Origin: a virus | Taxonomy: Duplodnaviria; Heunggongvirae; Uroviricota; Caudoviricetes | Direction: 5' to 3' (one strand) | IMG/VR virus record: IMGVR_UViG_2562617151_000002 | Coordinates: 1 to 16,232 of that record | Length of the DNA stretch: 16,232 nt | Shown: piece after piece, positions 1 through 16,232 of the stretch | Layout: each line of letters starts with the position of its first letter | Position numbering within the stretch: position 1 is the first letter of the stretch | The notes under the pieces: generated by a model | Database searches by the model: none | What the model was told of the DNA's origin: nothing | What the model saw: only the letters and a program-made list of their open reading frames with translations | Position numbers and translations under genes: made by a program

Positions 1-1164
1 TTACGCCTTCTTTATATCCTCCATAATTCCACAGTGGGACATATTTGGGACATTATCACCAAAAATGTCGTCTATTTTCCTTGCATGCTCTGTCAAATGA
101 TTAGGCGCAAGGTGAGCATACCTACGAACCATTTCTATGGACTCCCATCCGCCCATTTCCTGAAGCACAGATAATGGGACGCCTGACTGGATCAGCCAGC
201 TTGCCCAGGTGTGTCTGAGGTCATGGAAACGGAAATCTTCAATTCCTGCACGACGACAAGCTGATAGCCATGATGTCTTGCTGTCGATGCGCATCTTCCT
301 GACCGCAGGCGTTGATGTTCCATCTGCTCGCTTAGCCGCCTTGGTATGTACAAACACCCATTTGTGATGCTTGCCTATTTGATCACGCAACACTTTACAG
401 GCGGTATCGTTCAGCGCCACACCAATGGCGCGGTTTGATTTGCTCTCTTCTGGATTCACCCAGGCAACTCGTCGCTGCATGTCGATTTGTTGCCATTCCA
501 GATTTATGATGTTCGACTTTCTCAGACCAGTTGCCAGCGCAAACTTGACGACAGATTTCAGTGGTTCGGGGCACTCATCAATAAGGCGTTTTGCTTCCTC
601 CTTTTCCAGCCATCTGACTCGCTTGTTTCTGACCGCTGGTATCTTGATGACAGGCGCTTTTTCCAGCCACTTCCAGTCGCGTTCTGCAGCACGGAGAATG
701 GCCTTTATCATGGCAAGATGCTTTGCCTTTGTCTGAGTTGATACTGGCTTTGGTTCATAAACAGGCGGTTCTTTACCTTTCCTGATGGCGGCCTGAACTT
801 TCTGTTTCCATATTTCTTTCGTCTTTCTGTTATGCATTCTGCTTACAGCAGAGTAAATCTTTGCCTCCGAGATATCTTTAAGCCTTATACCCTCAAAATG
901 TTCAAGCCAGAACTCAATCCGGCTTTTATCTGAATCGAGAGATTTTTTATCAGCTTTTTCCTCAAGCCATCTTAGGCAGGCCTCTTCAAAAGTGACATCA
1001 GGTAAATCCCCTAGCTTTTCTACTCGCCAGAGTTCTGCTTTTCGCTTGTCGTGCAACTCCTGAGCTTGCCGCTTGTCCTTTGTGCCAAGAGATTCCTTAA
1101 TTCGTTTCCCGCCCGGGAGCGAATACGAGGCATACCATATTTCATTTCTGCGGAAGAGTGACAT
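1..1164 (-). CDS. int: Phage tyrosine integrase (lambda Int family)
   Basis: 387-aa ORF. Translation shows the tyrosine-recombinase catalytic pattern ([10 protein letters not shown] ... VRRYAHL with C-terminal Tyr). ATG at 1164-1162 preceded by GAGGAAAG. Its stop codon is the first codon of the window, so attL lies outside. Confidence 0.9.
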
Positions 1165-1391
1165 TTTCTTTCCTCTGTTATGCCATCACCCGCGCTCACC
1201 TGGACAGTATGCAGCGGAGACTGAAGCGCCGCAATGCAAGCTTGCCGTGTTGTGAGGTAAGGAGATTTTGGCTTGGTTGGATCTTTACGTGTTGCCTGTA
1301 GGCGGCCTGTTCGTATCCAGTTGGTGGCGGTTGGTCTGGATATCTTAAGAAACTGACAGGCCTCATCGAGTGTGAGGCTGTATGGCTCCAT
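1020..1391 (-). CDS. xis: Excisionase-like small DNA-binding protein
   Basis: ATG at 1391-1389 shares a base with the stop of the upstream ORF (TAATG). N-terminus [31 protein letters not shown] resembles small wHTH excisionases. The frame stays open to 1020, overlapping the first 144 nt of int, so the real C-terminal extent is uncertain. Confidence 0.6.
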
Positions 1392-1696
1392 TATTTCACC
1401 TCTTGCTGTGTCATTGTTGAAAAATGGATACCAGCTCGTTGCTGCCAGACGATCCAACCGAGAGTCATATCCCATGCCATGTATTCGTTATCGCCGTTTT
1501 TTACTCTCCGACGATCTACTAAGTCACCGAAACGCTTTTCCATGAATAATTCATAGGCTTCGCGTTCATCTGGCTCTACTTCCAGAGATACGAGTGCGAT
1601 TTCATAAGCACGGCGCTCAATATCGTCTCGAACCTCTAGGCTGCTGATTCGTTCTTTGATTTCTTTAATCAGTTCTTTATTGGTAAATGTGGTCAT
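1391..1696 (-). CDS. Hypothetical phage protein (acidic, 101 aa)
   Basis: ATG at 1696-1694 overlaps the stop of the upstream ORF (TAATG), and its own stop overlaps the xis start, so it is translationally coupled in the leftward operon. No recognisable motif. Confidence 0.5.
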   Translation of the reverse strand: MTTFTNKELIKEIKERISSLEVRDDIERRAYEIALVSLEVEPDEREAYELFMEKRFGDLVDRRRVKNGDNEYMAWDMTLGWIVWQQRAGIHFSTMTQQEVK

Positions 1697-2058
1697 TATG
1701 CTCCAGCCTCCGGTGCTTTTGGCATTACTGCCCAGTGAGTGATATTGAAGTTTTCAAGGTCCCCGACCTGAAATGTCCACTGCCATTCTCCGGTTTCTTT
1801 TTGTCCCCAGGTGTACCAGAGAGAACGCCAGCCAATCAGCCAGCCTTCTCCATTAGCATCAAATAACAGAACACTTTCATTTGCTGGTGGCAGTTCAGCT
1901 GACACTGGTATTATTTTGTTTTCCAGTGCCGCACATTTAGCTTCAAGCGCGTCGAATTTACGTAACAGGTACTCAGCATTTGTTTCATTCACTTTCAGAT
2001 CTCGCGGTACACATTTCCCGCGAAGAAACCCTTCCATTTCGAAAACATTCATGCGCAT
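1696..2058 (-). CDS. Hypothetical phage protein (120 aa, Trp-rich C-terminus)
   Basis: ATG at 2058-2056 is the first gene of the leftward operon. C-terminal GEGWLIGWRSLWYTWGQKETGEWQW pattern resembles small lambdoid b-region/Ea-type proteins. Assignment is by position only. Confidence 0.5.
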   Translation of the reverse strand: MRMNVFEMEGFLRGKCVPRDLKVNETNAEYLLRKFDALEAKCAALENKIIPVSAELPPANESVLLFDANGEGWLIGWRSLWYTWGQKETGEWQWTFQVGDLENFNITHWAVMPKAPEAGA

Positions 2059-2180
2059 TTGCGTAACTCCGATAACTCGTTAAAACGTTCCATAAACATC
2101 CCGTAACCGCAATGCGTCGAATGTTTATCAGCTTAACGTTGCGAAGCTTCAGGCTGCGGCATTTTCTCAACTGTCAGATT

Positions 2181-2240
2181 CTGACCCGTCAAAATCTGAC
2201 GCATCAAAATCTGACCCGTCAAAATTTGATGCGTCGAAAT
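2181..2240. repeat. Four tandem 15-bp iteron-like repeats
   Basis: Units read directly: CTGACCCGTCAAAAT, CTGACGCATCAAAAT, CTGACCCGTCAAAAT, TTGATGCGTCGAAAT. Each carries a 10-bp near-palindrome (TGACNNGTCA) followed by an A-tract. Partial units flank both sides. Confidence 0.6.
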
Positions 2241-2260
2241 CTGGCAAAAAAGCGGGTTTT

Positions 2261-2320
2261 CACCCGTCAGAATCTGGCGGGGATCCGTCAGTAAAATCAA
2301 AACATGATCCGTCAGATAAA
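2261..2320. repeat. Additional CCGTCAG half-site repeats
   Basis: CCGTCAG occurs at 2264-2270, 2285-2291 and 2309-2315, each followed by A-rich sequence. Looks like a continuation of the iteron array. Confidence 0.4.
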
Positions 2321-2814
2321 AAACCTTCTCGTCCGGACGCTTCGCAACCGGACACGCAGACGGCTGAACAGGATTTTTTAACTCGCCATCCTGATGCGGT
2401 TGTATTCAGCCCTAAAAAGCGCCAGTGGGGGACGCAGGATGATTTGACCTGCGCACAGTGGCTCTGGAAAAAAATCATCGCCCTGTACGAGCAGGCTGCC
2501 GAATGTGACGGCGAGGTGGTTCGTCCCAAAGAACCGAACTGGACAGCCTGGGCAAACGAAATTCGCCTGATGTGTGTGCAGGATGGTCGTACTCACAAAC
2601 AAATCTGCGAGATGTACAGCCGCGTCAGCCGCGATCCGTTCTGGTGCCGTAACGTGCTCAGCCCGTCGAAGCTGCGGGAAAAATGGGATGAGCTTTCCCT
2701 GCGCTTATCGCCGTCCGTAAGCACGTACACCGAAAAACGCGAAGACGCGTACTTCAAAGCCAGTTACGACAACGTGGACTACAGCCAGATCCCGGCAGGA
2801 TTCAGGGGGTAATC

Positions 2815-3303
2815 ATGAGTCTTTTGAATGAAGTTCAGAAATTCATTGAAGCCCATCCGGGGTGTACTTCCGGAGACATTGCGGATGCTTTTGCAGGCTA
2901 CTCACGGCAGCGCGTTCTGCAGTCAGCAAGCAAGTTACGTCAGAGTGGGCGTGTGGCTCACCGTTGTGAAGGGGATACACGCAGACATTTCCCGCGCCTG
3001 ACTGAGAGAGCGCAGGAGCCGGAACCACAACCAGTTCGTGAAACCAGACCTGCGCGCAATTTCTATGTCGGCACTAACGATCCACGGGTAATTTTGTGCC
3101 TGACCCGCCAGGCTGAAGAACTGGAGTCCAGGGGCTTATACCGTCGTGCTGCAACCGTGTGGATGGCGGCATTCCGTGAAAGCCACTCCCAACCAGAACG
3201 AAACAATTTTCTGGCGCGTCGTGAGCGGTGTTTACGGAAAAGCAGCAAGCGCGCTGCATCGGGTGAAGAGTGGTATCTGTCAGGGAATTACGTGGGGGCT
3301 TAA
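2815..3303 (+). CDS. Putative regulator: N-terminal wHTH-like region plus PerC-like C-terminal domain
   Basis: ATG 2815 follows the upstream stop by 2 nt. C-terminal segment QAEELESRGLYRRAATVWMAAFRESHSQPERNNFLARRERCLR matches the PerC/Pch family signature (LE..GLYRRAA..W). N-terminus MSLLNEVQKFIEAHPGCTSGDIADAF looks like a small HTH. Confidence 0.5.
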   Translation: MSLLNEVQKFIEAHPGCTSGDIADAFAGYSRQRVLQSASKLRQSGRVAHRCEGDTRRHFPRLTERAQEPEPQPVRETRPARNFYVGTNDPRVILCLTRQAEELESRGLYRRAATVWMAAFRESHSQPERNNFLARRERCLRKSSKRAASGEEWYLSGNYVGA

Positions 3304-3956
3304 TGAGTAATAAATATTGCCAGGCGCTGGTGGAACTGCGGAACAAACCAGCCCATGAACTGAAGGAAGTGGGCGATCAGTGGCGCACGCCGGACAACAT
3401 TTTCTGGGGAATTAACACCCTGTTTGGCCCGTTTGTTCTGGATCTGTTCACTGACGGTGATAACACCAAATGTGCTGCGTATTACACGGCGGAAGACAAC
3501 GCGCTGGCGCATGACTGGTCAGAACGTCTTGCGGAGCTTAAAGGTGCTGCCTTTGGTAATCCCCCATACAGCCGCGCCAGTCAGCATGAGGGGCAATACA
3601 TCACAGGCATGCGTTACATCATGAAGCATGCCAGTGCCATGCGTGATAAAGGTGGGCGCTATGTTTTCCTGATCAAAGCTGCCACCAGCGAAGTGTGGTG
3701 GCCGGAAGATGCAGATCATATTGCTTTTATTCGCGGGCGTATTGGTTTTGAACTGCCTGCCTGGTTTATCCCGAAAGATGAGAAGCAGGTGCCGACAGGC
3801 GCTTTCTTCGCTGGTGCTATTGCTGTTTTCGACAAGACCTGGAAGGGACCGGCAATCAGCTACATCGGGCGCGATGAACTTGAGGCATGTGGTGAGGCGT
3901 TTCTGGCGCAGGTTCGCCAGCAGGCGGAAAAACTGGTCAGGGAGATGGCGGCATGA
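3303..3956 (+). CDS. Phage DNA N6-adenine methyltransferase (Dam-type, orphan)
   Basis: ATG 3303 overlaps the upstream stop (TAATG). Translation has W-TP near the N-terminus, FVLDLFTDGDN, and the catalytic NPPY motif (GNPPYSRAS). An in-frame GTG at 3270 is a less likely start. No restriction partner is adjacent. Confidence 0.8.
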   Translation: MSNKYCQALVELRNKPAHELKEVGDQWRTPDNIFWGINTLFGPFVLDLFTDGDNTKCAAYYTAEDNALAHDWSERLAELKGAAFGNPPYSRASQHEGQYITGMRYIMKHASAMRDKGGRYVFLIKAATSEVWWPEDADHIAFIRGRIGFELPAWFIPKDEKQVPTGAFFAGAIAVFDKTWKGPAISYIGRDELEACGEAFLAQVRQQAEKLVREMAA

Positions 3957-4279
3957 CGACGTTAACTCAATGCCAGCAGCAGGTGCTGGATATGCTGATT
4001 TCTTATCAGAAAGAACGTGGCTTCCCGCCAACCAATCAGGAGGTGGCAACCATGCTGGGATACCGTTCAGTGAATGCAGCGGTGGAGCATCTTCGCGCAC
4101 TGGAGAAAAAAGGCGTCATCACGATAAAGCGTGGTGTGGCCCGGGGGATCACGCTTCATACCGTGGTGAAGGACGACGACAGCGAGGCGGTCGGGATTAT
4201 CCGCTCACTGCTTGCCGGTGAGGAAAACGCCAGGCTGCGTGCAGCCCACTGGTTACATGAGAGGGGCCTGAAAGTATGA
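3953..4279 (+). CDS. LexA N-terminal DNA-binding-domain homolog lacking the S24 peptidase domain
   Basis: ATG 3953 overlaps the dam stop (ATGA). The 108-aa product aligns by eye with LexA residues 1-70 (LT..QQ.V.D.I...G.PPT..E.A..LGYRS.NAA.EHL.AL.KKGVI.I..G..RGI.L). The protein ends before any Ala-Gly cleavage site or Ser/Lys dyad. Confidence 0.75.
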   Translation: MTTLTQCQQQVLDMLISYQKERGFPPTNQEVATMLGYRSVNAAVEHLRALEKKGVITIKRGVARGITLHTVVKDDDSEAVGIIRSLLAGEENARLRAAHWLHERGLKV

Positions 4280-4671
4280 AGCTGATCCTACCTTTTCCGC
4301 CCAGCGTGAACACGTACTGGCGACACCCCAACAAAGGGGCGTTTGCTGGTAAGAGCCTGATAAGCGCGGCGGGGCGAAAATTCCAGAGCGCGGCGTGTGC
4401 AGCAATAGTTGAGCAGTTACGTCGTCTGCCGAAACCAACGTCGGCACCTGCTTCAGTGGAGATCGTGTTGTTTCCTCCGGATAACCGGATCCGCGATCTG
4501 GACAACTATAACAAGGCGCTGTTTGACGCCCTGACCCACGCGGGTGTGTGGGAAGACGACAGTCAGGTGAAAAGAATGCTGGTGGAGTGGGGACCGGTTA
4601 TCCCGGAGGGGAAGGTCGAGATCACTATCAGTAAGTACGAAAAAGCGAGTTGCAAATTAGCAACTCGGTAA
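4276..4671 (+). CDS. rusA: RusA-family Holliday junction resolvase
   Basis: ATG 4276 overlaps the upstream stop (ATGA). Translation has LPFPPSVNTYWR and RDLDNYNKALFDALTHAGVWEDDSQV, the RusA core with catalytic Asp residues. Confidence 0.8.
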   Translation: MKLILPFPPSVNTYWRHPNKGAFAGKSLISAAGRKFQSAACAAIVEQLRRLPKPTSAPASVEIVLFPPDNRIRDLDNYNKALFDALTHAGVWEDDSQVKRMLVEWGPVIPEGKVEITISKYEKASCKLATR

Positions 4672-4716
4672 CGGAATTGAGCAACACCCTAAATTTGGGT
4701 ATTACCTCGTTAAAGA

Positions 4717-4736
4717 TACTGTATTTATGAACAGTG
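4717..4736. promoter_or_regulatory. Near-consensus LexA operator (SOS box)
   Basis: TACTGTATTTATGAACAGTG matches the E. coli LexA box TACTG-(N10)-CAGTA, with CTGT at 4719-4722 and ACAG at 4731-4734. It sits about 100 bp upstream of the next gene start, next to a candidate TTGATA(4742-4747)-17-TAAGTT(4765-4770) promoter. Confidence 0.65.
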
Positions 4737-4833
4737 TATCCTTGATAACTATTAAAAATCGCAGTAAGTTCATCCTGCATCAACGAAAAGGGAGTGCAGT
4801 CCCGCTCGTGGATAAAAATTTGTGGAGAAACCA

Positions 4834-5649
4834 ATGAATCAGTTGCTTGTAATTGATGGCGTTTCTGTGCGCCAGTACTTCGAATCTAACTACTGTCTTA
4901 ACGACCTTCAGAAAGCAGCTCTTCTTGCCGCTGGTGAGAATCGCTCCTCCCGTTCGCTGGAAGTTCACGAGTTTATGCGTCGTCCTGAAACGAAGGCTCT
5001 TGTGGAATTATTGGAAGAAGAAACTACGGGAGATTCCCGTAGTATTCCTGTCATCACCATTCAGGGGCGCAATGGTGGGACGTATGTCTGTAAAGAGCTG
5101 GTCTATGCATATGCAATGTGGATCAGCCCGGCATTCAGCTTAAAAGTGATACGTACTTTTGATGCGCTTCATAATTCATCACCAGAAGAAACCACATCCG
5201 ACAAAATTAAATCCGGGGTCATTCTGCTTGAATCAGCAGCAAAGACTCTAAATCTGTCAAACTCCTCGAAACTTGGTGCATACCAGAAATTATCAAAGGT
5301 AGCTGGTCTTCCTGAACTTATGCCGATCTATGCCATTGATGCACCTGCTGATGCGCCAGATGGTTCAAGCCGCCCTACGCTGTCGCTGAGTGCACTGCTG
5401 AAGCAGTATGGTATCCGCCTGACGGCTAATCAGGCATATCACCAGATGGCGAAGCTGGGGATCGTTGAACAACGCGAACGATACAGCCGTACCGCGATTA
5501 ACAACATCAAAAAATTCTGGTCGCTGACCGCGAAAGGCTGCATGTTCGGCAAGAACATCACCAGTCCTGCAAATCCGCGCGAGACGCAGCCGCATTTCTT
5601 CGAATCCCGATTCCCTGAGCTGTTAAAGCTGCTCGATACCGTTCATTGA
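4834..5649 (+). CDS. Phage antirepressor-like protein (Bro-N/AntA-like N-terminus, KilA-C/ANT-like C-terminus)
   Basis: ATG 4834 has GGAG 6 nt upstream; the in-frame GTG at 4822 is less likely. N-terminal LLVIDGVSVRQYFESNYCLNDLQKAA ... GTYVCKELVYAYAMWISPAFSLKVI and C-terminal AKLGIVEQRE ... KGCMFGKNI resemble phage antirepressor domains. Confidence 0.6.
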   Translation: MNQLLVIDGVSVRQYFESNYCLNDLQKAALLAAGENRSSRSLEVHEFMRRPETKALVELLEEETTGDSRSIPVITIQGRNGGTYVCKELVYAYAMWISPAFSLKVIRTFDALHNSSPEETTSDKIKSGVILLESAAKTLNLSNSSKLGAYQKLSKVAGLPELMPIYAIDAPADAPDGSSRPTLSLSALLKQYGIRLTANQAYHQMAKLGIVEQRERYSRTAINNIKKFWSLTAKGCMFGKNITSPANPRETQPHFFESRFPELLKLLDTVH

Positions 5650-5650
5650 G

Positions 5651-6646
5651 GTGACCGTGAGAGCACTACTGACCCCTGAAATTGCCCCGCGTATGGGGAT
5701 CGTATTGTTCAGACCAGGTTCAGAGCTGATGCCCTTGTTTATGCAGGGGCGTGTCCTGCTGGAGCCTGAGCCGGAACGTTATTCATCTTTCGCCAGTGGT
5801 GCCGTTCCGGCGGCATCACAACCGCTGGCGGATGATCCTGCCGTTCGGGCCGTGTTCCGCAATGAGGCAGTGATCCGTCGTGCTGGTGGCGTGGAATGTC
5901 TTGAAAGCTGGTTACTTCGTGAAAAAGGCTGCCAGTGGCCTCATTCCGACTGGCACAGCGAGAACATGACAACAATGCGACACGCTCCGGGCGCAATCCG
6001 TCTGTGCTGGCACTGCGATAACCAGCTGCGCGATCAGTTCACGGAACGGCTGGAATCAATGGCAACGGATAACTGTGCCCGCTGGGTGTTGTCTGTTGTG
6101 CGTCGGGATCTCGGTTTTGATGACAGTCATGTTGTGACAATGCCGGAACTGTGCTGGTGGCTGATTCGTAATGATCTGGCGGATGCCTTACCGGAAAGTG
6201 CAGCCCGTAAGGCACTGAGATTACCGAAGCCTGTTGTGCCGTCTGTTACCCGGGAAAGTGACCTTGTGCCTTCGGTTCCTGCCACCAGCATCATCCAGGA
6301 TAAGGCGAAAAAGGTGCTGGCGCTGAAAGTGGATCCGGAGTCGCCGGAGTCTTTTATGTTACGCCCAAAACGTCACCGCTGGGTTAATGAAAAGTACACG
6401 CGCTGGGTTAAGACGCAGCCGTGCGCATGTTGTGGAAAACCTGCTGATGATCCCCACCACCTGATAGGCCACGGTCAGGGGGGAATGGGTACAAAAGCGC
6501 ATGACCTTTTTGTGTTGCCTTTGTGCAGAAAGCATCACGACGAGCTGCATGCGGATACCGTGGCATTTGAAGAGAAGTATGGCTCCCAGCTGGAGCTGAT
6601 ATTTCGTTTTATCGATCGCGCACTGGCGATTGGTGTGCTGGCCTGA
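5651..6646 (+). CDS. Prophage protein with C-terminal Cys/His HNH-like motif (DUF968-like)
   Basis: 331-aa ORF immediately after the upstream stop. C-terminus [23 protein letters not shown] ... [10 protein letters not shown] looks like a zinc-binding HNH-type module. Start is uncertain: GTG 5651, GTG 5657 or ATG 5693. Confidence 0.55.
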
Positions 6647-6663
6647 TTTTGTGGAGAAAGTTA

Positions 6664-7047
6664 ATGCGTGATATTCAGATGGTTCTTGAACGTTGGGGAG
6701 CGTGGGCGGCTAATAATCATGAAGATGTGACCTGGTCGTCCATTGCCGCCGGTTTTAAGGGATTAATTCCTTCAAAAGTAAAATCTCGCCCGCAATGTTG
6801 TGACGATGACGCGATGATCATTTGCGGGTGCATGGCCCGTCTGAAAAAGAACAACAGCGATTTACACGATTTATTAGTAGATTATTATGTATGTGGTATG
6901 ACATTCATGTCACTGGCAAGTAAGCATTGCTGCTCGGATGGTTATATCGGGAAAAGGTTACAGAAGGCTGAGGGCATAATTGAAGGGATGTTAATGGCAT
7001 TAGATATCCGGTTAGATATGGATATCGTTGCTAATAATTCTAATTGA
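6664..7047 (+). CDS. Late-gene antiterminator Q-like protein (small QuuD-type)
   Basis: ATG 6664 preceded by GGAG (6652-6655). The 127-aa product is Cys-rich ([23 protein letters not shown]), consistent with a zinc-binding Q. It lies directly upstream of the porin and lysis genes, as in DLP12. The ORF track extends to TTG 6649. Confidence 0.6.
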
Positions 7048-7079
7048 TATGCAATTGTTTACTAAAAGTTATTAAAAAT

Positions 7080-7098
7080 GGGGCGTGGAAACGCCCCC
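7080..7098 (-). terminator. Rho-independent terminator candidate for the porin gene
   Basis: 7-bp GC stem GGGGCGT/ACGCCCC with a 4-nt loop. On the minus strand it is followed by ATTTTTAAT. It lies about 140 nt downstream of the porin stop. Confidence 0.5.
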
Positions 7099-7184
7099 AA
7101 AATAAAGGGTAATATATAACAGAAGGTTTATATAGTAAGAAGCAAGGTAGTGCTTCTAAAGGAAGTGGCTTGAGGGCTCCACTT

Positions 7185-7224: not shown

Positions 7225-7235
7225 CGTAAGTCAGA

Positions 7236-8907: not shown

Positions 8908-9123
8908 ATGAAATCCATGGATAAGTTAACAACGGGTGTCGCCTATGGCACCTCAGCAGGTAGTGCCGGATACTGGTTTTTACAGCTGCTAGATAAAGTC
9001 ACGCCCTCACAGTGGGCGGCAATTGGAGTGCTGGGTAGCCTGGTATTTGGCCTGCTGACGTACCTGACAAACCTTTATTTCAAGATTAAAGAAGATAAGC
9101 GCAAGGCTGCGAGAGGTGGATAA
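8908..9123 (+). CDS. S: Class II holin, phage-21 S-type (pinholin) with dual-start motif
   Basis: 71-aa ORF beginning MKSM (Met1 and Met4). Two hydrophobic segments and a basic C-terminus ([13 protein letters not shown]). Stop overlaps the endolysin start (TAATG). Confidence 0.85.
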
Positions 9124-9620
9124 TGCCTCCATCATTACGAAAAGCTGTTGCTGCTGCTATTGGTGGCGGGGCTATTGCTATAGCATCTGTGTTAATCACT
9201 GGCCCAAGTGGTAACGATGGTCTGGAAGGTGTGAGACATAATCCTTACAAAGACATAGTTGGTGTATGGACTGTATGTTACGGGCATACAGGAAAAGACA
9301 TCATTCCCGGTAAAACGTATACCGAAGCAGAGTGCAAAGCCCTCCTGAATAAAGACCTTGCCACTGTCGCCAGACAAATTAACCCGTACATCAAAGTCGA
9401 TATACCGGAAACAACGCGCGGCGCTCTTTACTCGTTCGTCTACAACGTGGGTGCTGGCAATTTCAGAACATCGACGCTTCTTCGCAAAATCAACCAGGGC
9501 GATATCAAAGGCGCATGTGACCAGCTACGTCGCTGGACATACGCTGGCGGTAAGCAATGGAAAGGGCTGATGACTCGCCGTGAGATTGAGCGTGAAGTCT
9601 GTTTGTGGGGGCAGCAATGA
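9123..9620 (+). CDS. R: SAR endolysin (T4-lysozyme-like muramidase, R21-type)
   Basis: N-terminal Gly/Ala-rich signal-anchor-release segment [30 protein letters not shown], followed by a lysozyme catalytic region ([25 protein letters not shown]). 165 aa. Confidence 0.9.
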
Positions 9621-10054
9621 GCAGGTTAACCGCGATTATCTCCGCTCTGGTTATCTGCATCATCGTCTGTCTGTCATGGGCTGTTAATCATTACCGTGAT
9701 AACGCCATTACCTATAAAGAACAGCGCGATAAAGCCACGTACATCATCGCTGACATGCAGAAGCGTCAACGTGACGTAGCAGAACTCGATGCCAGATATA
9801 CAAAGGAGCTTGCTGATGCTAACGCGACTATCGAAAGTCTCCGTGCTGATGTTTCTGCTGGGCGTAAGCGCCTGCAAGTCGCCGCCACCTGTGCAAAGTC
9901 AACGACCGGAGCCAGCGGCATGGGCGATGGAGAAAGCCCAGGACTTACAGCAGATGCTGAACTCAATTATTACCGTCTCCGAAGTGGAATCGACAAGATA
10001 ACCGCGCAGGTTAACTACCTGCAGGAATACATCAGGACGCAATGCCTGAATTAA
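9617..10054 (+). CDS. Rz: Rz i-spanin
   Basis: ATG 9617 overlaps the endolysin stop (ATGA). N-terminal TM segment ([20 protein letters not shown]), then a coiled-coil periplasmic domain. The ORF track extends to GTG 9605. Confidence 0.8.
9816..10001 (+). CDS. Rz1: Rz1 o-spanin lipoprotein, embedded in Rz in the +1 frame
   Basis: ATG 9816 preceded by AAAGGAG (9802-9808). Lipoprotein signal [20 protein letters not shown], then a Pro-rich mature region ([13 protein letters not shown]). Lies entirely within the Rz coordinates. Confidence 0.7.
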
Positions 10055-10083
10055 TTTTTTTGCAAATCACAAAGTCCATTTAA

Positions 10084-10107
10084 TGAGCCTCGCGATGCGG
10101 GGCTTTT
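10084..10107 (+). terminator. Terminator candidate after Rz (first of two)
   Basis: Hairpin GAGCCTCGC-GAT-GCGGGGCT followed by TTTTT. Confidence 0.45.
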
Positions 10108-10114
10108 TGCAATA

Positions 10115-10139
10115 AATGCGTACCGCAACGCATGTTTTT
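10115..10139 (+). terminator. Terminator candidate after Rz (second of two)
   Basis: Stem ATGCGT/ACGCAT with loop ACCGCA, followed by GTTTTTT. Confidence 0.55.
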
Positions 10140-10255
10140 TACACCGAACCTGCCCCTTTGGAATGGGCCTTTGAGGATACCAGTTAGTGCTGGCGAGCCT
10201 CGGTGGGCTGGTTTCCTGTGCGGCAAAGGTTCATTTCAAAGAGTAGGTACACGCT

Positions 10256-10753
10256 ATGAAATCATTAACCCTCTTCAATCAACCAATTCGTATCGGTGAA
10301 GATGGCATGATCTGCCTCACTGATATGTGGAAAGCCAGTGGTAAAAGTGAATCTGAATCGCCTTACCACTACCTGCGAAACAAGCAGACCAAAGAGTTCT
10401 TAGCCGAGCTGGAGAAAAACCACGAATCTGTGGTTTTTACTGAGCGCGGTGTACACGGTGGAACATATGGCGGGAAGTTTGTTGCTTACGATTATGCGGC
10501 TTGGTTAAACCCCGGGTTCAAGTACGCGGCCTATAAAGTCCTCGATGACTACTTCACCGGAGAACTTCAGCATCGCAACAGCTTAAGTGCGCAGCTCAAC
10601 ATGAAATGTCATGAGTTTGACCAGAAGAAAGACATGGCGAGCTTCTGCGGACAAGGGCTGGCAGCATGGCGCTATACGAAGCCAGTGTTGGTCGCTGAGA
10701 TTAACTCCCTGGCTAACCAGCTGCAGATTACGATCCCCGGGCTTCCGGGATGA
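10256..10753 (+). CDS. KilA-N domain protein
   Basis: ATG 10256 preceded by AGAGTAGG. Translation FNQPIRIGEDGMICLTDMWKASGK ... GTYGGKFVAYDYAAWLNPGFKYA fits the KilA-N/APSES-type fold pattern. Occupies the post-lysis position where bor sits in DLP12. Confidence 0.7.
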   Translation: MKSLTLFNQPIRIGEDGMICLTDMWKASGKSESESPYHYLRNKQTKEFLAELEKNHESVVFTERGVHGGTYGGKFVAYDYAAWLNPGFKYAAYKVLDDYFTGELQHRNSLSAQLNMKCHEFDQKKDMASFCGQGLAAWRYTKPVLVAEINSLANQLQITIPGLPG

Positions 10754-11007
10754 GTGATCGTGTTATTGAATGCGCCTCCAGAGCGGGGCGCGACTTCTCA
10801 GAGTTCATGAAAGGCGAGAAGGGCATGATGGAAGCATTGGCCTCGGTGGATGAGTTTGGCGAGCAGCTGCGCCTCAACGGCTGTGTCAATCATCACTTTG
10901 TTAGCTACATGATGCGGAACTCGATCATGCAGGCATTCATGGACATGGCAAAAGCCGAGAGGAAAGAAGAGCGCCGGCGTAAGCGAGCGGAAGCAAAAGC
11001 GAAGTAG
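10750..11007 (+). CDS. Hypothetical protein (85 aa) with basic C-terminal tail
   Basis: ATG 10750 overlaps the KilA-N stop (ATGA). C-terminus KAERKEERRRKRAEAKAK. No recognisable family. Confidence 0.5.
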   Translation: MSDRVIECASRAGRDFSEFMKGEKGMMEALASVDEFGEQLRLNGCVNHHFVSYMMRNSIMQAFMDMAKAERKEERRRKRAEAKAK

Positions 11008-11293
11008 CCATTACAAAGCCTATCTACGGGTGGGCTTGATAATGGCTTATACCCTACACGGGATAACTTAACTGATATCCCTTTTAAAGGATAAAGGTAT
11101 TCAAGCCTGACACATCATGCGCTGTATCGTCGCCGTGTTCCCGTATTAACAGAGACCGTAGCCCGACGGGGAACTCCTTCTGCGCGAGTGTGCGGGAATA
11201 ATCAAAAACGATGCACACCGGGGTTACCGGGTACACATATTTCATCATGCCAGCGAGTCCGGTTCTGGCACGGAAGAAACCGGACGTTATGAT

Positions 11294-11704
11294 TTAGTGC
11301 GGAAATATTTGTGTAGTGTTCTGAATGTTCTCAGTAAAGAGTAATGAATTATCAAAGGTATAGTAATACCTTTTGTTTTCGTGGATATTTGTAATCCATC
11401 TGAAAACCCCTGCTGTAGCAAGATTTTTCCTGTATTCGTAAAATGATAACTCTCCTGATTTGAATCCTTTTAAGGTGGCTTCTATAAGGCATTTATTTTT
11501 TGAAAATCTTACATTTACAACCTTACCCTGTCCTTTTATTAAAACCGTATTATCGTTTTCAAGAACAAGATGAATATTCTCTGTGGCTAAATAGTAAATG
11601 TAATGTGAGACATTGTGACGTTTTAGTTCAGAATAAAACCAGTGATAGTTTAAATTATTTCGCACTTTATCGAATATTTGTTTAAAAATGGCAACCTGAG
11701 CCAT
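11294..11704 (-). CDS. AT-rich cargo gene, hypothetical (possibly YbcV-like envelope-protein family)
   Basis: Visibly lower G+C than its flanks. The ATG at 11704-11702 has GGAAGG 8 nt upstream and gives 136 aa; the ORF track starts 5 codons earlier at 11719. Opposite strand to the late operon. The family guess rests on position and size only. Confidence 0.5.
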
Positions 11705-11761
11705 TGTAGTACCTTCCATGTGATATGAGGGGGCGTAGTCTGCACGATTATCTAGATTGCT

Positions 11762-11995
11762 TCAATCTGGTCTAACCTGTTTTCTGAGCAATTCAGTAAT
11801 GTCACTCTTTTCTTTGTTTGCTTCAGGCGAAACTCTTTTTTCTGAGCACAGTCTCCGGCGGCAGGCTTCAATGACCCAGGCTGAGAAATTCCCGGACCCT
11901 TTTTGAACAAGAGCGATGTTAATTTGTTCAATCATTTGGTTAGGAAAGCGGATGTTGCGGGTTGTTGTTCTGCGGGTTCTGTTCTTCGTTGACAT
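11762..11995 (-). CDS. Small basic ribbon-helix-helix-like putative DNA-binding protein
   Basis: 77-aa ORF. N-terminal basic stretch then IRFPNQMIEQINIALVQKGSGNFSAWVIEACRRRL looks like an Arc/MetJ-type strand-helix-helix. Lies 42 bp upstream of the AT-rich gene on the same strand. Confidence 0.45.
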   Translation of the reverse strand: MSTKNRTRRTTTRNIRFPNQMIEQINIALVQKGSGNFSAWVIEACRRRLCSEKRVSPEANKEKSDITELLRKQVRPD

Positions 11996-12059
11996 GAGGT
12001 TGCCCTGTATTCAGTGTCGCTGATTTGTATTGTCTGAAGTTGTTTTTACGTTAAGTTGA

Positions 12060-12376
12060 TGCAGATCAATTAATACGATACCTGCGTCATAATTGATTAT
12101 TTGACGTGGTTTGATGGCGTAGATGCACGTTGTGACATGTAGATGATAATTATTATCATTTTTCGGGTCCTTTCCGGCGATCCGACAGGTTACGGGGCGG
12201 CGACCTCGCGGGTTTTCGCTATTTATGAAAATTTTCCGGTTTAAGGCGTTTCCGTTCTTCTTCGTCGTAACTTAATGTTTTTATTTAAAATACCCCCTGA
12301 AAAGAAAGGAAACGACAGGTGCTGAAAACGAACTTTTGGGCCTCTGTCGTTTCCTTTCTCTGTTTTGGGCCGTGGA
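12060..12376. other. cos: Lambda-type cohesive-end site (cosQ-cosN-cosB)
   Basis: From my recollection of the lambda genome ends: ...CCGACAGGTTACG followed by cosN GGGCGGCGACCT at 12175-12186, then the cosB region CGCGGGTTTTCGCTATTTATGAAAATTTTCCGGTTTAAGGCG... up to the nu1 start, with only a few substitutions. Confidence 0.85.
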
Positions 12377-12383
12377 ATGAACA

Positions 12384-12457
12384 ATGGAAGTCAACAAAAA
12401 GCAGCTGGCTGACATTTTCGGTGCGAGTATCCGTACCATTCAGAACTGGCAGGAACA
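12384..12457 (+). pseudogene. nu1: Terminase small subunit nu1, 5' stub (first about 25 codons only)
   Basis: ATGGAAGTCAACAAAAAGCAGCTGGCTGACATTTTCGGTGCGAGTATCCGTACCATTCAGAACTGGCAGGAACA matches the lambda nu1 start (MEVNKKQLADIFGASIRTIQNWQE). Identity ends after 12457 and the frame stops soon after. Confidence 0.85.
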
Positions 12458-12661
12458 CCGGGCAGCATGGCGGACAGTCGGTCGCAGGCGTCCGGGAAGT
12501 TTGAGCAGAATAACCATGTGGTGATTAACAACGACGGCACGAACGGGCAGATAGGTCCGGCTGCTCTGAAGGCGGTGTATGACATGGCCCGCAAGGGTGC
12601 CCGTGATGAAATTCAGACACAGATGCGTGATGGTGGCCTGTTCTCCGGAGGTGGACGATGA
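12458..12661 (+). pseudogene. H: 3' remnant of tail tape-measure gene H
   Basis: Sequence after the junction encodes ...SQASGKFEQNNHVVINNDGTNGQIGPAALKAVYDMARKGARDEIQTQMRDGGLFSGGGR, and its stop overlaps the M start (ATGA) as in lambda. It is in a different frame from the nu1 stub. Confidence 0.8.
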
Positions 12662-12987
12662 AGACCTTCCGCTGGAAAGTGAAACCCGGTATGGATGTGG
12701 CTTCGGTCCCTTCTGTAAGAAAGGTGCGCTTTGGTGATGGCCATTCCCAGCGAGCGCCTGCCGGGCTGAATGCCAACCTGAAAACGTACAGCGTGACGCT
12801 TTCTGTCCCCCGTGAGGAGGCCACGGTACTGGAGTCGTTTCTGGAAGAGCACGGGGGCTGGAAATCCTTTCTGTGGACGCCGCCTTATGAGTGGCGGCAG
12901 ATAAAGGTGACCTGCGCAAAATGGTCGTCGCGGGTCAGTATGCTGCGTGTTGAGTTCAGCGCAGAGTTTGAACAGGTGGTGAACTGA
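12658..12987 (+). CDS. M: Minor tail protein M (intact)
   Basis: The 109-aa product (MKTFRWKVKPGMDVASVPSVRKVRFGDG...SAEFEQVVN) matches lambda gpM from memory over essentially its full length. Confidence 0.9.
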   Translation: MKTFRWKVKPGMDVASVPSVRKVRFGDGHSQRAPAGLNANLKTYSVTLSVPREEATVLESFLEEHGGWKSFLWTPPYEWRQIKVTCAKWSSRVSMLRVEFSAEFEQVVN

Positions 12988-14936
12988 TGCAGGATAACAG
13001 CGCACAGGCGGCAGCGGCCTCGCAGACTGCATCGGCAAACTCCGCAACAGCAGCTAAAAAATCAGAAACCAACGCGAAAAATAGCGAGACAGCCGCAAAG
13101 ACGAGCGAAACCAACGCAAAGTCCAGCCAGACGGCAGCGAAGACCAGCGAAACGAATGCTAAAGCCAGTGAAACTGCAGCAAAAAACAGCCAGGTTGCAG
13201 CAGCCCAAAGCGAGAGCGCGGCAGCCGGTTCTGCGACTTCAGCAGCTGGATCAGCAACTGCTGCGGCTAACAGCCAGAAAGCTGCGAAGACGAGTGAAAC
13301 TAACGCAAAGTCCAGCCAGACGGCAGCGAAGACCAGCGAAACGAATGCCAAAGCCAGTGAAACTGCGGCGAAAAGCAGTCAGGATGCAGCAGCCCAAAGC
13401 GAGAGTGCTGCAGCTGGTTCTGCAAGCGCGGCGGCTGCTTCTGCCACTGCATCAGCCAACAGTCAAAAAGCAGCAAAAACCAGTGAAACCAATGCAAAGA
13501 CAAGCGAGACTGCAGCGGCGAACTCGGCGAAAGCATCGGCAGCAAGCCAGACGGCAGCTAAAGCAAGCGAAGATGCAGCCAGAGAGTACGCAAGCCAGGC
13601 TGCGGAGCCGTATGAATATGTCTTACAGCCGCTGCCTGATGTGTGGATACCGTTTAACGATTCGCTGGATATGATTACGGGCTTTTCGCCATCATATAAA
13701 AAAATTGTTATTGGTGACGATGAAATAACGATGCCTGGCGACAAGATTGTTAAGTTTAAACGTGCATCGAAAGCAACCTATATTAACAAATCTGGTGTGC
13801 TGACAGAGGCTGCCATTGACGAGCCACGATTTGAACGTGATGGCCTGCTTATTGAGGGGCAAAGAACAAACTACATGCTCAATTCGGAAAGCCCTGCCAG
13901 TTGGGGGCGATCGTCAAATATGGATGTGCCCGAAACTGGGACGGATAGTTTTGGTTTTACCTATGGAAAGTTTGTCTGTAACGATTCTCTGATTGGGCAA
14001 ACCTCAGCCATTAATATGGCATCAATTGCTGCAACAAAGTCAGTTGATGTCTCAGGCGATAATAAATACGTGACAACCTCATGTCGTTTTAAAACAGAAC
14101 TGCAGGTAAGGTTGCGTATCCGGTTTGATAAATATGACGGTAGCGCAACAACTTTTCTTGGTGATGCGTATATTGATACACAAACGCTTGAAACTAATAT
14201 GACAGGCGGCGCTGCCTCAAGGATTACAGCGAGAGTCAGAAAGGACGAAGCTACCGGATGGATTTTTGCAGAGGCAACAATTCAGGCAATTGATGGGGAG
14301 TTAAAAATAGGTTCTCAGATACAGTATTCTCCTAAGCAGGGCGGGGCAACCGTATCTGGTGACTATATTTATCTGGCCACCCCACAAGTAGAAAATGGGC
14401 CTTGTGTATCATCTTTTATTATATCAGGAACGACGGCGGCGACCCGTGCAAGTGATATGGTAACTATTCCCGCAAGAAACAATATTTATAAACAACCTAT
14501 CAGTGTTCTTATTGAAGTTAATAAGAATTGGGATATTGTGCCAAACGGAGCACCAAGAATTTTTGACCTGAACGCAACATCATCATTCGCTGAAGAGTCT
14601 TTTATATTTGCATTCCGAGGGCCGACATCAACAGTTCTTCCTGGATCGGCATATGTTAGTGTTGGTTCCCCGTCAAGAGGAACTGGTAACAATGAAGTTG
14701 TAAACACTGGAATATATGGAGTTAAAATAGACAAAGATGGCGGCTTAGCAGCGTCGCTGAATGGTAACATTTCATCAAAAGTCAGTACTTCATGGGGTGG
14801 TGCTATAAAATCAACGGCAATAAGAATAGGAGGGCAGACAACTGCCGGAACGAGGCATTTGTTTGGACACATCAGGAATTTCAGAATATGGCATAAAGAA
14901 TTAACTGATGCGCAAATGGGGGAGAGTATTAAATGA
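12987..14936 (+). CDS. Side-tail-fibre-like protein; apparent fusion of the L start to an internal Stf repeat region, with a lectin-like C-terminal domain
   Basis: First 10 nt ATGCAGGATA equal the lambda L start (MQD), then the sequence switches to Ala-rich AKTSETNAKSSQTAAK repeats typical of Stf. The C-terminal approx 400 aa are non-repetitive and end in GHIRNFRIWHKELTDAQM, resembling the last strand of LamG/concanavalin-like jelly rolls. ATG overlaps the M stop. Confidence 0.7.
   Translation: MQDNSAQAAAASQTASANSATAAKKSETNAKNSETAAKTSETNAKSSQTAAKTSETNAKASETAAKNSQVAAAQSESAAAGSATSAAGSATAAANSQKAAKTSETNAKSSQTAAKTSETNAKASETAAKSSQDAAAQSESAAAGSASAAAASATASANSQKAAKTSETNAKTSETAAANSAKASAASQTAAKASEDAAREYASQAAEPYEYVLQPLPDVWIPFNDSLDMITGFSPSYKKIVIGDDEITMPGDKIVKFKRASKATYINKSGVLTEAAIDEPRFERDGLLIEGQRTNYMLNSESPASWGRSSNMDVPETGTDSFGFTYGKFVCNDSLIGQTSAINMASIAATKSVDVSGDNKYVTTSCRFKTELQVRLRIRFDKYDGSATTFLGDAYIDTQTLETNMTGGAASRITARVRKDEATGWIFAEATIQAIDGELKIGSQIQYSPKQGGATVSGDYIYLATPQVENGPCVSSFIISGTTAATRASDMVTIPARNNIYKQPISVLIEVNKNWDIVPNGAPRIFDLNATSSFAEESFIFAFRGPTSTVLPGSAYVSVGSPSRGTGNNEVVNTGIYGVKIDKDGGLAASLNGNISSKVSTSWGGAIKSTAIRIGGQTTAGTRHLFGHIRNFRIWHKELTDAQMGESIK
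13116..13234. repeat. Intragenic direct repeat, copy 1 (about 119 bp)
   Basis: GCAAAGTCCAGCCAGACGGCAGCGAAGACCAGCGAAACGAATGC... recurs 189 bp downstream with a handful of substitutions. Confidence 0.7.
13305..13423. repeat. Intragenic direct repeat, copy 2 (about 119 bp)
   Basis: Near-identical to 13116-13234. The 189-bp offset equals 63 codons, so the protein repeat stays in frame. Confidence 0.7.
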
Positions 14937-15214
14937 AAGATTTAACACTCAAATTTGCCGACAGGGCCGACTTTTCGGCTTTTATGGGAAGTATTGGCTA
15001 TTATAATGACGAGTCGATGCAGGATGATATTCTTATTGATGTGATAGGTAACGTGTACAAAGAAACCGGAGAGCTGACTGAAGATGGCGAACCGGTATGT
15101 GTTAAGGAAGACGGATATTTTGTAAACGTGCGCATCATTAATGATGTGAAAACACCGTCAATATTCGATGAATACGTGGTTGCTGTTGAGCATCAACTTC
15201 GTGGCTGGATGTGA
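14933..15214 (+). CDS. Hypothetical small acidic protein (93 aa)
   Basis: ATG 14933 overlaps the fibre gene stop (ATGA). No recognisable motif. Sits where tfa would be in lambda but is not Tfa-like. Confidence 0.5.
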   Translation: MKDLTLKFADRADFSAFMGSIGYYNDESMQDDILIDVIGNVYKETGELTEDGEPVCVKEDGYFVNVRIINDVKTPSIFDEYVVAVEHQLRGWM

Positions 15215-15223
15215 GGAAGAAAA

Positions 15224-15928
15224 ATGGCTACATCGACAGTAATTCCGGGAGACATCACCACGCTAAAGGGAGATGTTAGTAAAGCAAAGGAAGATATTTC
15301 CTCTATTAACGGAAAAGTATCAACGCTTCAGACTGATATGGCCAGTGCACAGCAGGATATCAGCACCAGATACACAAAAACTGAAGTTGATAATAAGCTG
15401 AAAAACAAACTGGAAGTGAATGCTCTGGAAAGCGGTAATTATGGTGGAGATTTTTACCCGCTGACTGGTCGTGAAGCGTTTTATTTATGGAATTTGGGCA
15501 CGACTACAGCGGCGGCAAACCTTTATCTTAATCCTGACCCTGCAATTTCGTCTGTACTGCGGTCAACATCGTCTATTCGCTATAAACATTCAGTAGAGAC
15601 GATAGATTCAGAGCACGCCGATCTCATTTTCAGGATGCGCCCTGTATGGTACAGGTCGCAATGTGAAAATGACAGGCGTGACTGGGGATTCTACGGATTA
15701 ATTGCCGAGGAAGTAGGAGAAATTGCCCCTCAGTTTGTACACTGGCGACCAGCCAACGAGAATGATGCTCCTGAAGCTATTTCCAGCAATGGTCTTGTTG
15801 CCGAAGGTGTAATGTACGAACGTCTGGTTGTTCCACTGATTCACCATATCCAGAAACTGACTGAAAGAGTTGATGAACTTGAGTCAGAATTGAAGTTGTT
15901 ATCAACTTCCCAAAGCGATATCGGATAA
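15224..15928 (+). CDS. Short coiled-coil fibre-like protein with C-terminal intramolecular chaperone (peptidase S74-like) domain
   Basis: ATG 15224 preceded by GAGGAAGA. N-terminal heptad-like region. C-terminus has the motif series seen in tail-spike chaperone domains: SSIRYK (compare SDIRLK), WGFYGLIAEEVGEIAPQFV (compare GVIAQEVEEVFPEVV), GVMYERLVVPLIHHIQKLTERVDELE. Confidence 0.6.
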   Translation: MATSTVIPGDITTLKGDVSKAKEDISSINGKVSTLQTDMASAQQDISTRYTKTEVDNKLKNKLEVNALESGNYGGDFYPLTGREAFYLWNLGTTTAAANLYLNPDPAISSVLRSTSSIRYKHSVETIDSEHADLIFRMRPVWYRSQCENDRRDWGFYGLIAEEVGEIAPQFVHWRPANENDAPEAISSNGLVAEGVMYERLVVPLIHHIQKLTERVDELESELKLLSTSQSDIG

Positions 15929-15938
15929 AGGAGGAGTA

Positions 15939-16232
15939 ATGGATATAACACCTTTTCTTCATGCGCTTTGTGCTGTGGCTGCGCAGGTAATGATTGGTCT
16001 TTTTGCCGGAAACTGGGTTTACGGGGCGATAGCCGGTTGTACGTTCTTCATTGCGCGTGAACACACCCAGGCAGAATATCGCTGGATTGAAATGTTCGGG
16101 CATGGCAAGCGGATTAACATGCCGTGGTGGGGCGGTTTTGATCCGCGTGTTTGGGATGTGGCAAGCCTGATAGATTTTGCTGTGCCGGTGGTGGCGTGTC
16201 TGCTGGTCTGGCTGTTGGTTAATCGTGGGTGA
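15939..16232 (+). CDS. Small integral membrane protein (two predicted TM segments)
   Basis: ATG 15939 preceded by AAGGAGGAG. Hydrophobic segments ALCAVAAQVMIGLFAGNWVYGAIAGCTFFI and LIDFAVPVVACLLVWLLV. Stop codon is the last triplet of the window. Confidence 0.5.
   Translation: MDITPFLHALCAVAAQVMIGLFAGNWVYGAIAGCTFFIAREHTQAEYRWIEMFGHGKRINMPWWGGFDPRVWDVASLIDFAVPVVACLLVWLLVNRG

Follow-up and report, generated by a model that had tools for sequence, protein, structure and literature searches.

Relationship to Known Prophages

The closest described counterpart of the DNA considered here is DLP12 (qsr'), the cryptic prophage at the tRNA-Arg gene argU of Escherichia coli K-12, for which a 47-bp attachment core is known (PMC6379469). 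The stretch under study, IMG/VR record IMGVR_UViG_2562617151_000002 (16,232 nucleotides; hereafter the window), constitutes 16.2 kb of a defective lambdoid prophage of about 20.7 kb that occupies the same site. We consider it about 85% probable that this element arose by recent, stepwise erosion of a temperate phage similar to Escherichia phage PhiR49_1, and that it is a cryptic prophage of the known DLP12 type and not an evolved satellite. As one more member of that type, the element itself is of minor importance. The main interest lies in a recurrent, motif-anchored endpoint at one of its deletions, which ties that junction to the K-12 prophage CPS-53 and to many other strains.

The element shares with DLP12 the attachment site, the 47-bp argU core at attR, and the integrase, with 99.4% nucleotide identity to K-12 intD over window positions 1-1259. 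The late block, comprising Q, the porin, S-R-Rz, ybcV/ylcI, cos, and nohD, is also held in common at 83-96% nucleotide identity, and DLP12 likewise lacks the immunity region, heads, and tails. With the argU site and core, an IntD-type integrase, and a late block without morphogenesis genes, the element is a DLP12-type prophage. The two nevertheless differ in their early and nin regions, which in DLP12 consist of exoD', renD::IS3, emrE, and ybcK-ybcO and in the window of yfdT/yfdR-type genes and O/PerC/Dam/KilA-N genes. The deletion junctions of DLP12 are independent of those in the window, as DLP12 retains nohD in full and has tfaD joined to an A' stump. Furthermore, DLP12 nmpC is a homologue of the porin gene disrupted by the insertion sequence (IS) IS5, whereas the porin gene of the window is intact and the window contains no IS elements.

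Like the element, Gram-negative phage-inducible chromosomal islands (PICIs) such as EcCICFT073 have int at the left end and a cos open to use by a lambda-type terminase, lack capsid genes, and are much smaller than the helper genome (PMC6092414). PICIs are defined by an attachment site of their own, the absence of structural and lytic genes, the presence of AlpA and Pri-Rep, and exclusive genes (Fillol-Salom et al., PMC6092414). The argU site of the element also holds intact PhiR49_1-type prophages in E. coli KK19-02 and E28, and the window encodes a holin, lysozyme, Rz, tail gene M, and tail-fibre genes. Its only initiator is a truncated lambda-O-like one, its HTH_17 protein is a phage excisionase (phrog_2907), and all of its genes are held in common with phage at about 100% identity. 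In addition, PICIs have a distinct cosB, which this element lacks. Judged by its gene content, the element is a truncated phage copy whose likeness to PICIs is limited to a usable cos and a small size. A further point of comparison is the pool of defective prophages in O157 Sakai, deleted lambdoid elements that may still be excised, packaged, and transferred via other prophages (PMC2669165). The evidence in that case is experimental.

An Intact Parent and the Extent of the Element

A cultured and viable parent type is available in PhiR49_1 (PV340568.1), whose 45,270-bp genome has the 5.2 kb missing near the left end of the window in place. A literature search for a source paper on this phage returned nothing relevant. 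A second intact relative is the complete prophage of KK19-02 (L001), which lies beside tRNA-Arg and carries intD, a cI/cro-type switch, an O-like gene, Q, the porin, S-R-Rz, nohD, the terminase, and head genes. The gene order of the window is that of PhiR49_1 and the KK19-02 prophage, and the Int, Xis, Q, S, R, and Rz proteins are identical; the difference is that these phages are complete at 45.3 kb, with cI/cro, a full O, terminase, head, and tail. Local BLAST places window 1-2105 at L001 6001-8105 and window 2103-12457 at L001 13309-23663, and the nucleotide identity of these two pieces to PhiR49_1 and the KK19-02 prophage is 99.9-100%. The tail segments are colinear with the same two prophages, with 94-99% identity across the H-M and tail-fibre segments. 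The tail is a mosaic module that lies nearer to FG92-1.

No single locus matches the whole window in a megablast search of 5,426 complete E. coli genomes, and none of these genomes carries 80% or more of the window at one locus. The best complete genomes contain window 1-12457 at 100% identity in two pieces spread over 17.7 kb.

The first-pass annotation had taken the window for the whole element, a view that the flanking DNA revises. The contig that carries the element (GCA_000158415.2, JH660540.1), identified by an exact match to the 649-aa ORF at 12987-14936, continues rightward with genes for a methyltransferase and an alpha/beta hydrolase and then with ompT, envY, and nfrA, which is the right flank of DLP12 in K-12. 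The 47-bp argU core of attR lies between ompT and envY (L002 17694-17740, equivalent to window coordinates 20680-20726), about 4.5 kb past position 16232. A sister assembly with 100% identity across window 1-8294 places the attL core 13 nt to the left of position 1. The measured distance between attL and attR agrees with the size balance, since subtracting 24,543 bp of deletions from 45,270 bp leaves about 20.7 kb. In E28 (L004, NZ_CM143889.1 3712540-3760816), the PhiR49_1-type prophage is present as a head-to-tail tandem with a unit of 44,960 bp and a second int directly after ompT, which reflects either a double lysogen or the assembly of replicating phage DNA.

Three Deletion Junctions

Relative to the intact phages, the element has undergone three deletions, J1 to J3, with a summed loss of about 24.5 kb. 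All pieces are colinear with the intact phage and there is no sign of rearrangement. All six deletion ends are intragenic, and each joint falls on a microhomology of 2-3 nt.

J1 (window 2103-2105) lies at a shared GTA and removed 5,206 bp relative to both the KK19-02 prophage and PhiR49_1. The left parent reads ...CATCCCGTA up to the break and GGCATG beyond it, the right parent reads ...CCAGGGTA followed by ACCGCAATG, and the window reads ...CATCCCGTAACCGCAATG. The deletion took most of yfdR, yfdQ, yfdP, two small open reading frames (ORFs), the S24-type cI repressor, cro, ymfL/ymfM, and codons 1-77 of O. To its left remains yfdR', the last 57 nt of a 5'-deoxynucleotidase gene (2049..2105, minus strand; the intact yfdR is L001 8049..8585, given that window 1..2105 equals L001 6001..8105). 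To its right remains O' (2105..2812, plus strand), the C-terminal 235 codons of a lambda-O-like initiator, which matches phrog_391 over positions 79-298 of 298 where the intact gene matches over 1-298. The first in-frame start of O' is a TTG at 2444 (codon 114), which yields the 122-aa ORF of the yfdO type found in K-12.

J2 (12455-12457) lies at a shared ACA and removed 12,674 bp relative to KK19-02, from about codon 25 of Nu1 to the 3' end of the tape-measure gene H. Homology to Nu1 runs to 12457 (...GGCAGGAACA) and the 3' end of the tape-measure gene begins at 12455. Lost here are Nu1 past codon 24-25, terminase A, the portal, the capsid, and the tail shaft. What is left is an nohD'/Nu1' stump (12384..12457, plus strand; PF07471 Phage_Nu1 positions 1-25 of 164), translated as 24-25 codons followed by 16 foreign ones, and a 64-codon H' 3' end (12458..12661, plus strand). 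The tail-tip gene M that follows (12658-12987, plus strand; PF05939) is intact, and the H-M region is 98.9% identical to KK19-02.

J3 (12995-12996) lies at a shared TA inside an imperfect 10-nt match (ATGCAGGATA/ATGCAGCTAA) and removed approximately 6.6-6.7 kb, namely L from codon 4, K, I, J, lom, and the 5' end of stf with the N-terminus of its product. The start of L (ATGCAGGATA, then TCC) is thereby fused to about codon 150 of stf (AATGCAGCTA, then ACAGC). The product is an in-frame chimera of 649 aa (12987..14936, plus strand) made of L codons 1-3 and stf codons ~150-795, with a match to phrog_1419 over positions 150-793 of 793. Its sequence is 98.8% identical to the full-length stf of FG92-1, beginning 439 nt into that gene. 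Given this frame, the start codon of L, with the sequence upstream of it, would head a tail-fibre fragment of 649 aa that lacks the N-terminal ~149 residues.

The first-pass annotation had proposed a prophage cut by three internal deletions, and alignment to the intact relatives confirms all three junctions. It had placed the second and third exactly, at 12457/12458 and 12996/12997, while J1 falls a few bases to the right of its estimate of about 2059-2100. Its claim that the immunity region is missing holds, with cI, cro, and ymfL/ymfM inside the J1 deletion, as does the absence of an intact initiator, terminase, capsid, and most tail genes. It had also counted exo/bet and N among the losses. 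These genes are unannotated in the intact parent as well, and their absence is therefore not a deletion. The integration and excision genes, the iteron array, Q, the lysis genes, and cos are indeed kept, as it had stated, and the colinear pieces show no rearrangement of the kind it had named as a refutation. With its switch, complete initiator, terminase, head, and tail genes removed by J1 to J3, the element is not a functional temperate lambdoid phage.

A Stepwise Erosion Series

The same junctions were sought in other assemblies, as the first-pass annotation had suggested, and they were found there. J1 was recovered in independent assemblies (GCA_012451305.1 and Logan SRR30656959) and occurs in only a few near-identical sister assemblies. 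An exact 40-mer across J2 is present in nine contigs from NCBI, ENA, and Logan, while a J3 40-mer is present in only two (JH660540.1 and one Logan contig). The J2 and J3 sequences are absent from IMG/VR, and J2 and J3 together occur in 0 of the 5,426 complete E. coli genomes.

The contigs that share J2 have flanks 99.8-100% identical to the window and differ downstream of it. One of them (L162; ERZ652232 NODE_784) carries J2 and a 1.1-kb deletion from I' to J', while its L and K are intact. Another (L161; ERZ18740350 NODE_16) carries J2 and the same I'/J' junction together with an added deletion from L' to K', and retains lom and a full-length stf. The contig of the window (L160; JH660540.1) has J2 and, instead, the deletion from L' to stf'. 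The contigs thus form a stepwise erosion series, with successive or alternative stages downstream of J2, in which J2 is older than J3. The J' endpoint common to L161 and L162 was considered as a possible recurrence and was set aside, for it is the same I'/J' junction by descent, plus a 66-nt piece unreported by BLAST. Since the flanks are nearly identical to a living phage, the deletions are young. A cultured intact parent together with sister intermediates offers a rare, datable, step-by-step view of prophage erosion.

Other remnants have reached a similar layout via other deletions, among them K-12 DLP12, OHT76-1, A25, and FG92-1. In A25 (L009 9655-10035), terminase A' is joined to the end of H. 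In FG92-1 (L005 10036-10051), rrrD' is fused to J' at a shared TAC with the loss of 19 kb.

A Recurrent Endpoint in the O Gene

The right end of J1 (T^AACCGC, where ^ marks the break; about codon 78 of O; window 2103-2123, PhiR49_1 (L007) 7321-7343) is shared by at least 10 deletion classes, counted from scans of IMG/VR, metagenomes, and species-representative genomes and from exact-protein look-ups. All of these classes read ...T^AACCGCAATG at the O site. Three complete genomes have a different yfdR'-O' junction, and in OHT76-1 the left end lies 164 bp from that of the window while the right end is at the same O position. The left ends fall at PhiR49_1 positions 2087, 2118, 2279, 3997, 4421, 6127, 6184, and 6194, with two further partners of other origin. 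These left partners lie 1-5 kb from the O site, and the microhomologies span 2-8 nt and include TA in all cases. Each characterized class has lost the N-terminus of O and upstream early genes, and most have lost the whole immunity region.

The K-12 prophage CPS-53 (KpLE1) is a case of this kind. It too carries an immunity-region deletion with its right end at the same O base as J1 (...T^AACCGCAATG), leaving the same 122-aa yfdO ORF followed by yfdN. It differs in its attachment site (argW), its integrase, its left end (upstream of yfdP, at PhiR49_1 position 3997), and its haplotype. A literature search for a described deletion hot spot in yfdO or the O gene returned nothing relevant.

A single ancestral J1-type deletion spread by recombination could in principle yield the same pattern. 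This was ruled out because the eight testable classes sit on different haplotypes: for each of the eight, the nearest intact haplotype is a different one, 0-2 nt away over the 700 nt of right flank, and these haplotypes differ from one another by 6-14 nt. The classes are therefore independent events and not one inherited deletion. In an unbiased sample of 120 anchor-containing viral contigs, only one further break, at GTT^AAC, falls within the 230 nt of O upstream of the hot spot.

A junction scan of all contigs against PhiR49_1 yielded 25 junctions. Leaving aside the boundaries of gene cassettes, which fall at ATGA overlaps, the recurrent ends have GG(A/G)TA(A/T)CC (GGRTAWCC) in common, cut at the central T^A. 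The copy at the O site, GGGT^AACCGC (motif sequence GGGTAACC), lies beside the origin iterons. On the side that is retained, a degenerate iteron-like ATGCGTCGAA sits 7 nt from the break, and the main array of iterons starts about 55 nt further along. Two inverted copies of GGATAACCG in rusA, at window 4479-4487 (plus) and 4595-4603 (minus), form the ends of other deletions in IMG/VR contigs (L041 and L056), where they serve as a right end (two classes) and as a left end. Further motif endpoints fall at 2276 and 4418, and the copy at the start of L (GGATATCC, window 12990-12997) is used both by J3 of the window and by the deletion in L161. The motif occurs at 11 positions in the 45-kb genome, with endpoints at 6 of the 8 in sampled regions, and the longer GG(A/G)TAACCG occurs three times, each time as an endpoint and always with the AACCG side retained; because the motif was derived from endpoints, there is some circularity in these counts. 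Even so, it is very improbable that several independent endpoints would have the same 8-9-nt word in phase by chance.

On this basis, we tentatively propose, at a little short of even odds, that J1 is one instance of site-specific, polar deletion at a GG(A/G)TA(A/T)CC hub and not a random deletion. Candidate causes of such a fragile site are a fork barrier, a protected double-strand end, and a topoisomerase or nuclease site. The pattern of endpoints resembles, by analogy, deletions at arrested forks such as those at terB, or at a protected double-strand end. The terB deletions, reportedly described by Bierne, Ehrlich and Michel in 1991, are said to combine a fixed, base-precise endpoint with variable partners, short homologies, and polarity. 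The O hot spot is alike in its fixed polar endpoint and variable short-homology partners, but it has no Ter site, and GGRTAWCC is not a Tus site. If the hub is real, a built-in fragile site would repeatedly turn such temperate phages into repressor-less, replication-dead remnants. This would give a mechanistic reason for the likeness among the remnants of this phage family, including the yfdO stump of K-12 CPS-53, and would provide a straightforward model, open to test, for the "grounding" of prophages by bacteria.

Two local features were examined as causes of the break. A hairpin directly left of the hot spot is unsupported as a pause site (DNA fold -15.3 kcal/mol, z = -1.4). The 45-kb phage has only two copies of the pattern GGTTAC-N(2-6)-GGCGAC, one at cosN (L007 17406-17422, plus) and the other at the O hot spot (7314-7328, minus). 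A pseudo-cosN at the hot spot is at best a weak lead, as its overall similarity to cos is not significant, many random windows align to cos with higher scores, and the polarity is wrong for the side that survives.

One heavily deleted relative (L059; IMG/VR UViG_2778261533_000002) has the left end of J1 (PhiR49_1 2118, CCCGT^A; L059 3561-3565) joined to another right partner, with GTT^AACAGAC at 3174. It also has its own O-site junction, and a further TAAC-to-TAAC deletion would recreate J1 exactly.

History and State of the Remnant

In the proposed history, a PhiR49_1-like temperate phage of 45.3 kb integrated at argU with the DLP12 site and integrase type, and three separate illegitimate, microhomology-mediated deletions then removed 24.5 kb. 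J1 took the immunity switch together with the two early promoters and the N-terminal, DNA-binding part of the O initiator; J2 the terminase-head-tail-shaft block; and J3 the tail-tip/J/lom block. The remainder would be whatever the deletions missed and the host tolerates or profits from, such as the porin, ompT further to the right, and other accessory genes, with selection presumably acting as a filter on the deletions that survive. Because the repressor, promoters, and initiator were lost jointly in J1, the remnant would be transcriptionally stranded, which would explain how a cell can carry it without a repressor. By analogy with lambda-type regulation, expression of int/xis, O, and Q by the element itself would be impossible after J1, and the remnant alone would probably be incapable of SOS induction, replication, and lysis. 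Promoter-like sites in the window number 18 against a shuffled expectation of 21.3, so that the scan, which shows no excess, is uninformative on residual transcription.

Several observations weigh against erosion as the full account. The attachment sites, int, xis, iterons, and cos all survive, which amounts to all cis elements and both recombinases needed for mobilization, and a dimer of 41.5 kb would reach 92% of the parental length and be packageable in principle. Moreover, the right end of J1 recurs, which implies that a site-specific mutational bias, and not pure chance, shaped one or more of the three deletions. The survival of the mobilization sites and of int/xis makes passive mobilization by a lambda-type helper conceivable from the sequence. 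The first-pass annotation went further and judged the element closer to a helper-dependent mobilizable element than to a randomly decayed prophage. Under such a reading, a co-resident or superinfecting PhiR49_1/lambda-type helper would supply Int/Xis expression, O, Q, terminase, heads, and tails, and the element would excise, replicate from its iterons, and enter capsids by way of its lambda-type cos, probably as a dimer. The intact attL and attR cores are in keeping with this, as are Int and Xis proteins identical to those of a viable phage, the retained iterons, a cos about 96% identical to lambda with an exact cosN, and the match between 2 x 20.7 kb (41.5 kb) and 92% of 45.3 kb. There is also precedent: full-size lambda/phi80 capsids take up multimers of E. 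coli PICIs (PMC6092414), and release and transfer of defective O157 prophages can occur when help is supplied (PMC2669165). However, the element shows no signs of adaptation to such a life. It consists of gene stumps and a chimeric ORF behind private, very recent junctions with intragenic ends and microhomology joints, its sisters preserve intermediate stages of decay, and its attachment site is that of an intact phage. Its int and xis have no promoter of their own, and it has no satellite-specific genes, helper-sensing regulator, primase/helicase, AlpA-type activator, or interference genes, but still carries lytic genes. The origin can no longer be transcriptionally activated from pR, and, to judge from lambda biology, the element could not itself provide the Int expression needed to become established in a recipient. 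We therefore regard helper-dependent mobilization as an unlikely explanation, and the preference of the first-pass annotation for it does not stand.

Stepwise erosion is complemented, more than opposed, by the idea that the remnant has been domesticated, with the porin, ompT, the alpha/beta hydrolase, the lysis cassette, and the KilA-N proteins kept by host selection and the deletions favored as disarming. Within this phage family, repeated losses of the immunity region have left the late region and accessory genes in place, K-12 DLP12 keeps the same blocks, and all retained ORFs are intact and identical to the copies of the viable phage except for one porin residue. This intactness is uninformative at so young an age, since flanks about 100% identical to the intact phage leave too little time for purifying selection to become visible, and domestication is accordingly held to be doubtful, though clearly less remote than mobilization by a helper. 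An artefact, with junctions created by draft mis-joins or with the missing parts present at another genomic position, would be suggested by the draft scaffold source (GCA_000158415.2 JH660540.1) and by the repeat-rich nature of lambdoid prophages. Against this, J1 recurs in independent assemblies, J2 in nine contigs, and J3 in two, and the source contig continues through ompT, attR, envY, and nfrA as in K-12, which makes an artefact highly improbable.

Retained Genes and Sites

The left end of the window encodes an intact IntD-type integrase of 387 aa (1..1164, minus strand; Pfam Phage_integrase, 5.5e-47) that is identical to PhiR49_1 Int. Overlapping the 5' end of int is a full-length excisionase gene, xis (1020..1391, minus), whose product of ~123 aa matches phrog_2907 over positions 2-117 of 117 (1.3e-45) and Pfam HTH_17, and is identical to the PhiR49_1 copy. 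In RefSeq (PGAP) relatives, the xis region is annotated only as a 63-nt "helix-turn-helix, partial" pseudogene, and in the PhiR49_1 record it is unannotated. Two early-left genes on the same strand follow, a yfdT-like gene (1391-1696) and a DUF551/EaE-like gene (1696-2058), assigned from the KK19-02 annotation and, as a pair, PHROG 660/583.

Inside O', a repeat search detects an origin-like iteron array (2159..2320) with a 15-bp period (TCTGACCCGTCAAAA), for which Tandem Repeats Finder (TRF) reports a period of 15 and 4.3 copies at 2180-2243. The nin-type region (2815..6646, plus strand) is assigned from Pfam families of the genes called on the source contig and from the KK19-02 annotation. 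It encodes PerC/YfdN (2815-3303), a Dam-type methyltransferase (3303-3956), a 108-aa LexA_DNA_bind protein (3953-4279; Pfam, PHROG "transcriptional repressor"), RusA (4276-4671), KilA-N (4834-5649), and DUF968/HNH (5657-6646). The surviving LexA_DNA_bind protein is distinct from the immunity repressor. The late antiterminator Q (QuuD type, 127 aa; 6664..7047, plus; PF06530) is intact, identical to the KK19-02 copy, and 95% identical in nucleotide sequence to K-12 quuD. On the minus strand lies the intact porin moron of the OmpC/NmpC/Lc type (360 aa; 7236..8318; PF00267/PF13609).

A candidate late promoter (8528-8556, plus) and a candidate terminator (8746-8767, plus) precede the holin gene and are consensus matches only. 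The lysis cassette (8908..10054, plus; PF04971, PF00959, PF03245) consists of holin S (8908-9123), lysozyme R (9123-9620), and Rz (9617-10054), all intact and identical to the KK19-02 copies. An accessory block between the lysis genes and cos (10256..11995) contains KilA-N/ORF11CD3 (10256-10753, plus), an 85-aa ORF (10750-11007, plus; KK19-02 annotation/called genes), DUF1398/YbcV (11294-11704, minus), and DUF3950/YlcI (11762-11995, minus), the three named genes being assigned from Pfam and the KK19-02 annotation. Next comes a cos site (cosQ-cosN-cosB; 11995..12383, plus), where a 463-nt alignment to the circularized ends of lambda has ~96% identity and ends exactly at J2. The 12-nt cohesive-end sequence of cosN, GGGCGGCGACCT, is exact at 12195-12206. 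With cosN flanked by cosQ and by cosB R sites/I1 upstream of Nu1, the site is by sequence a lambda-type cos. No Rfam family reached its gathering score in the window, and a tRNA scan of the window found none.

The right end of the window, beyond the chimera, holds three tail-fibre accessory ORFs (14933..16232, plus; Pfam, PHROG) of 93 aa, 234 aa (with a Peptidase_S74 chaperone domain), and 97 aa. Within the chimera itself, TRF finds a 189-bp tandem repeat (13083-13517; 2.3 copies, 83% matches) with nested 42-bp units, which codes for an Ala/Ser/Lys/Thr-rich tail-fibre repeat. This tandem repeat accounts for the spike in AT skew (0.57) at 13001-13500.

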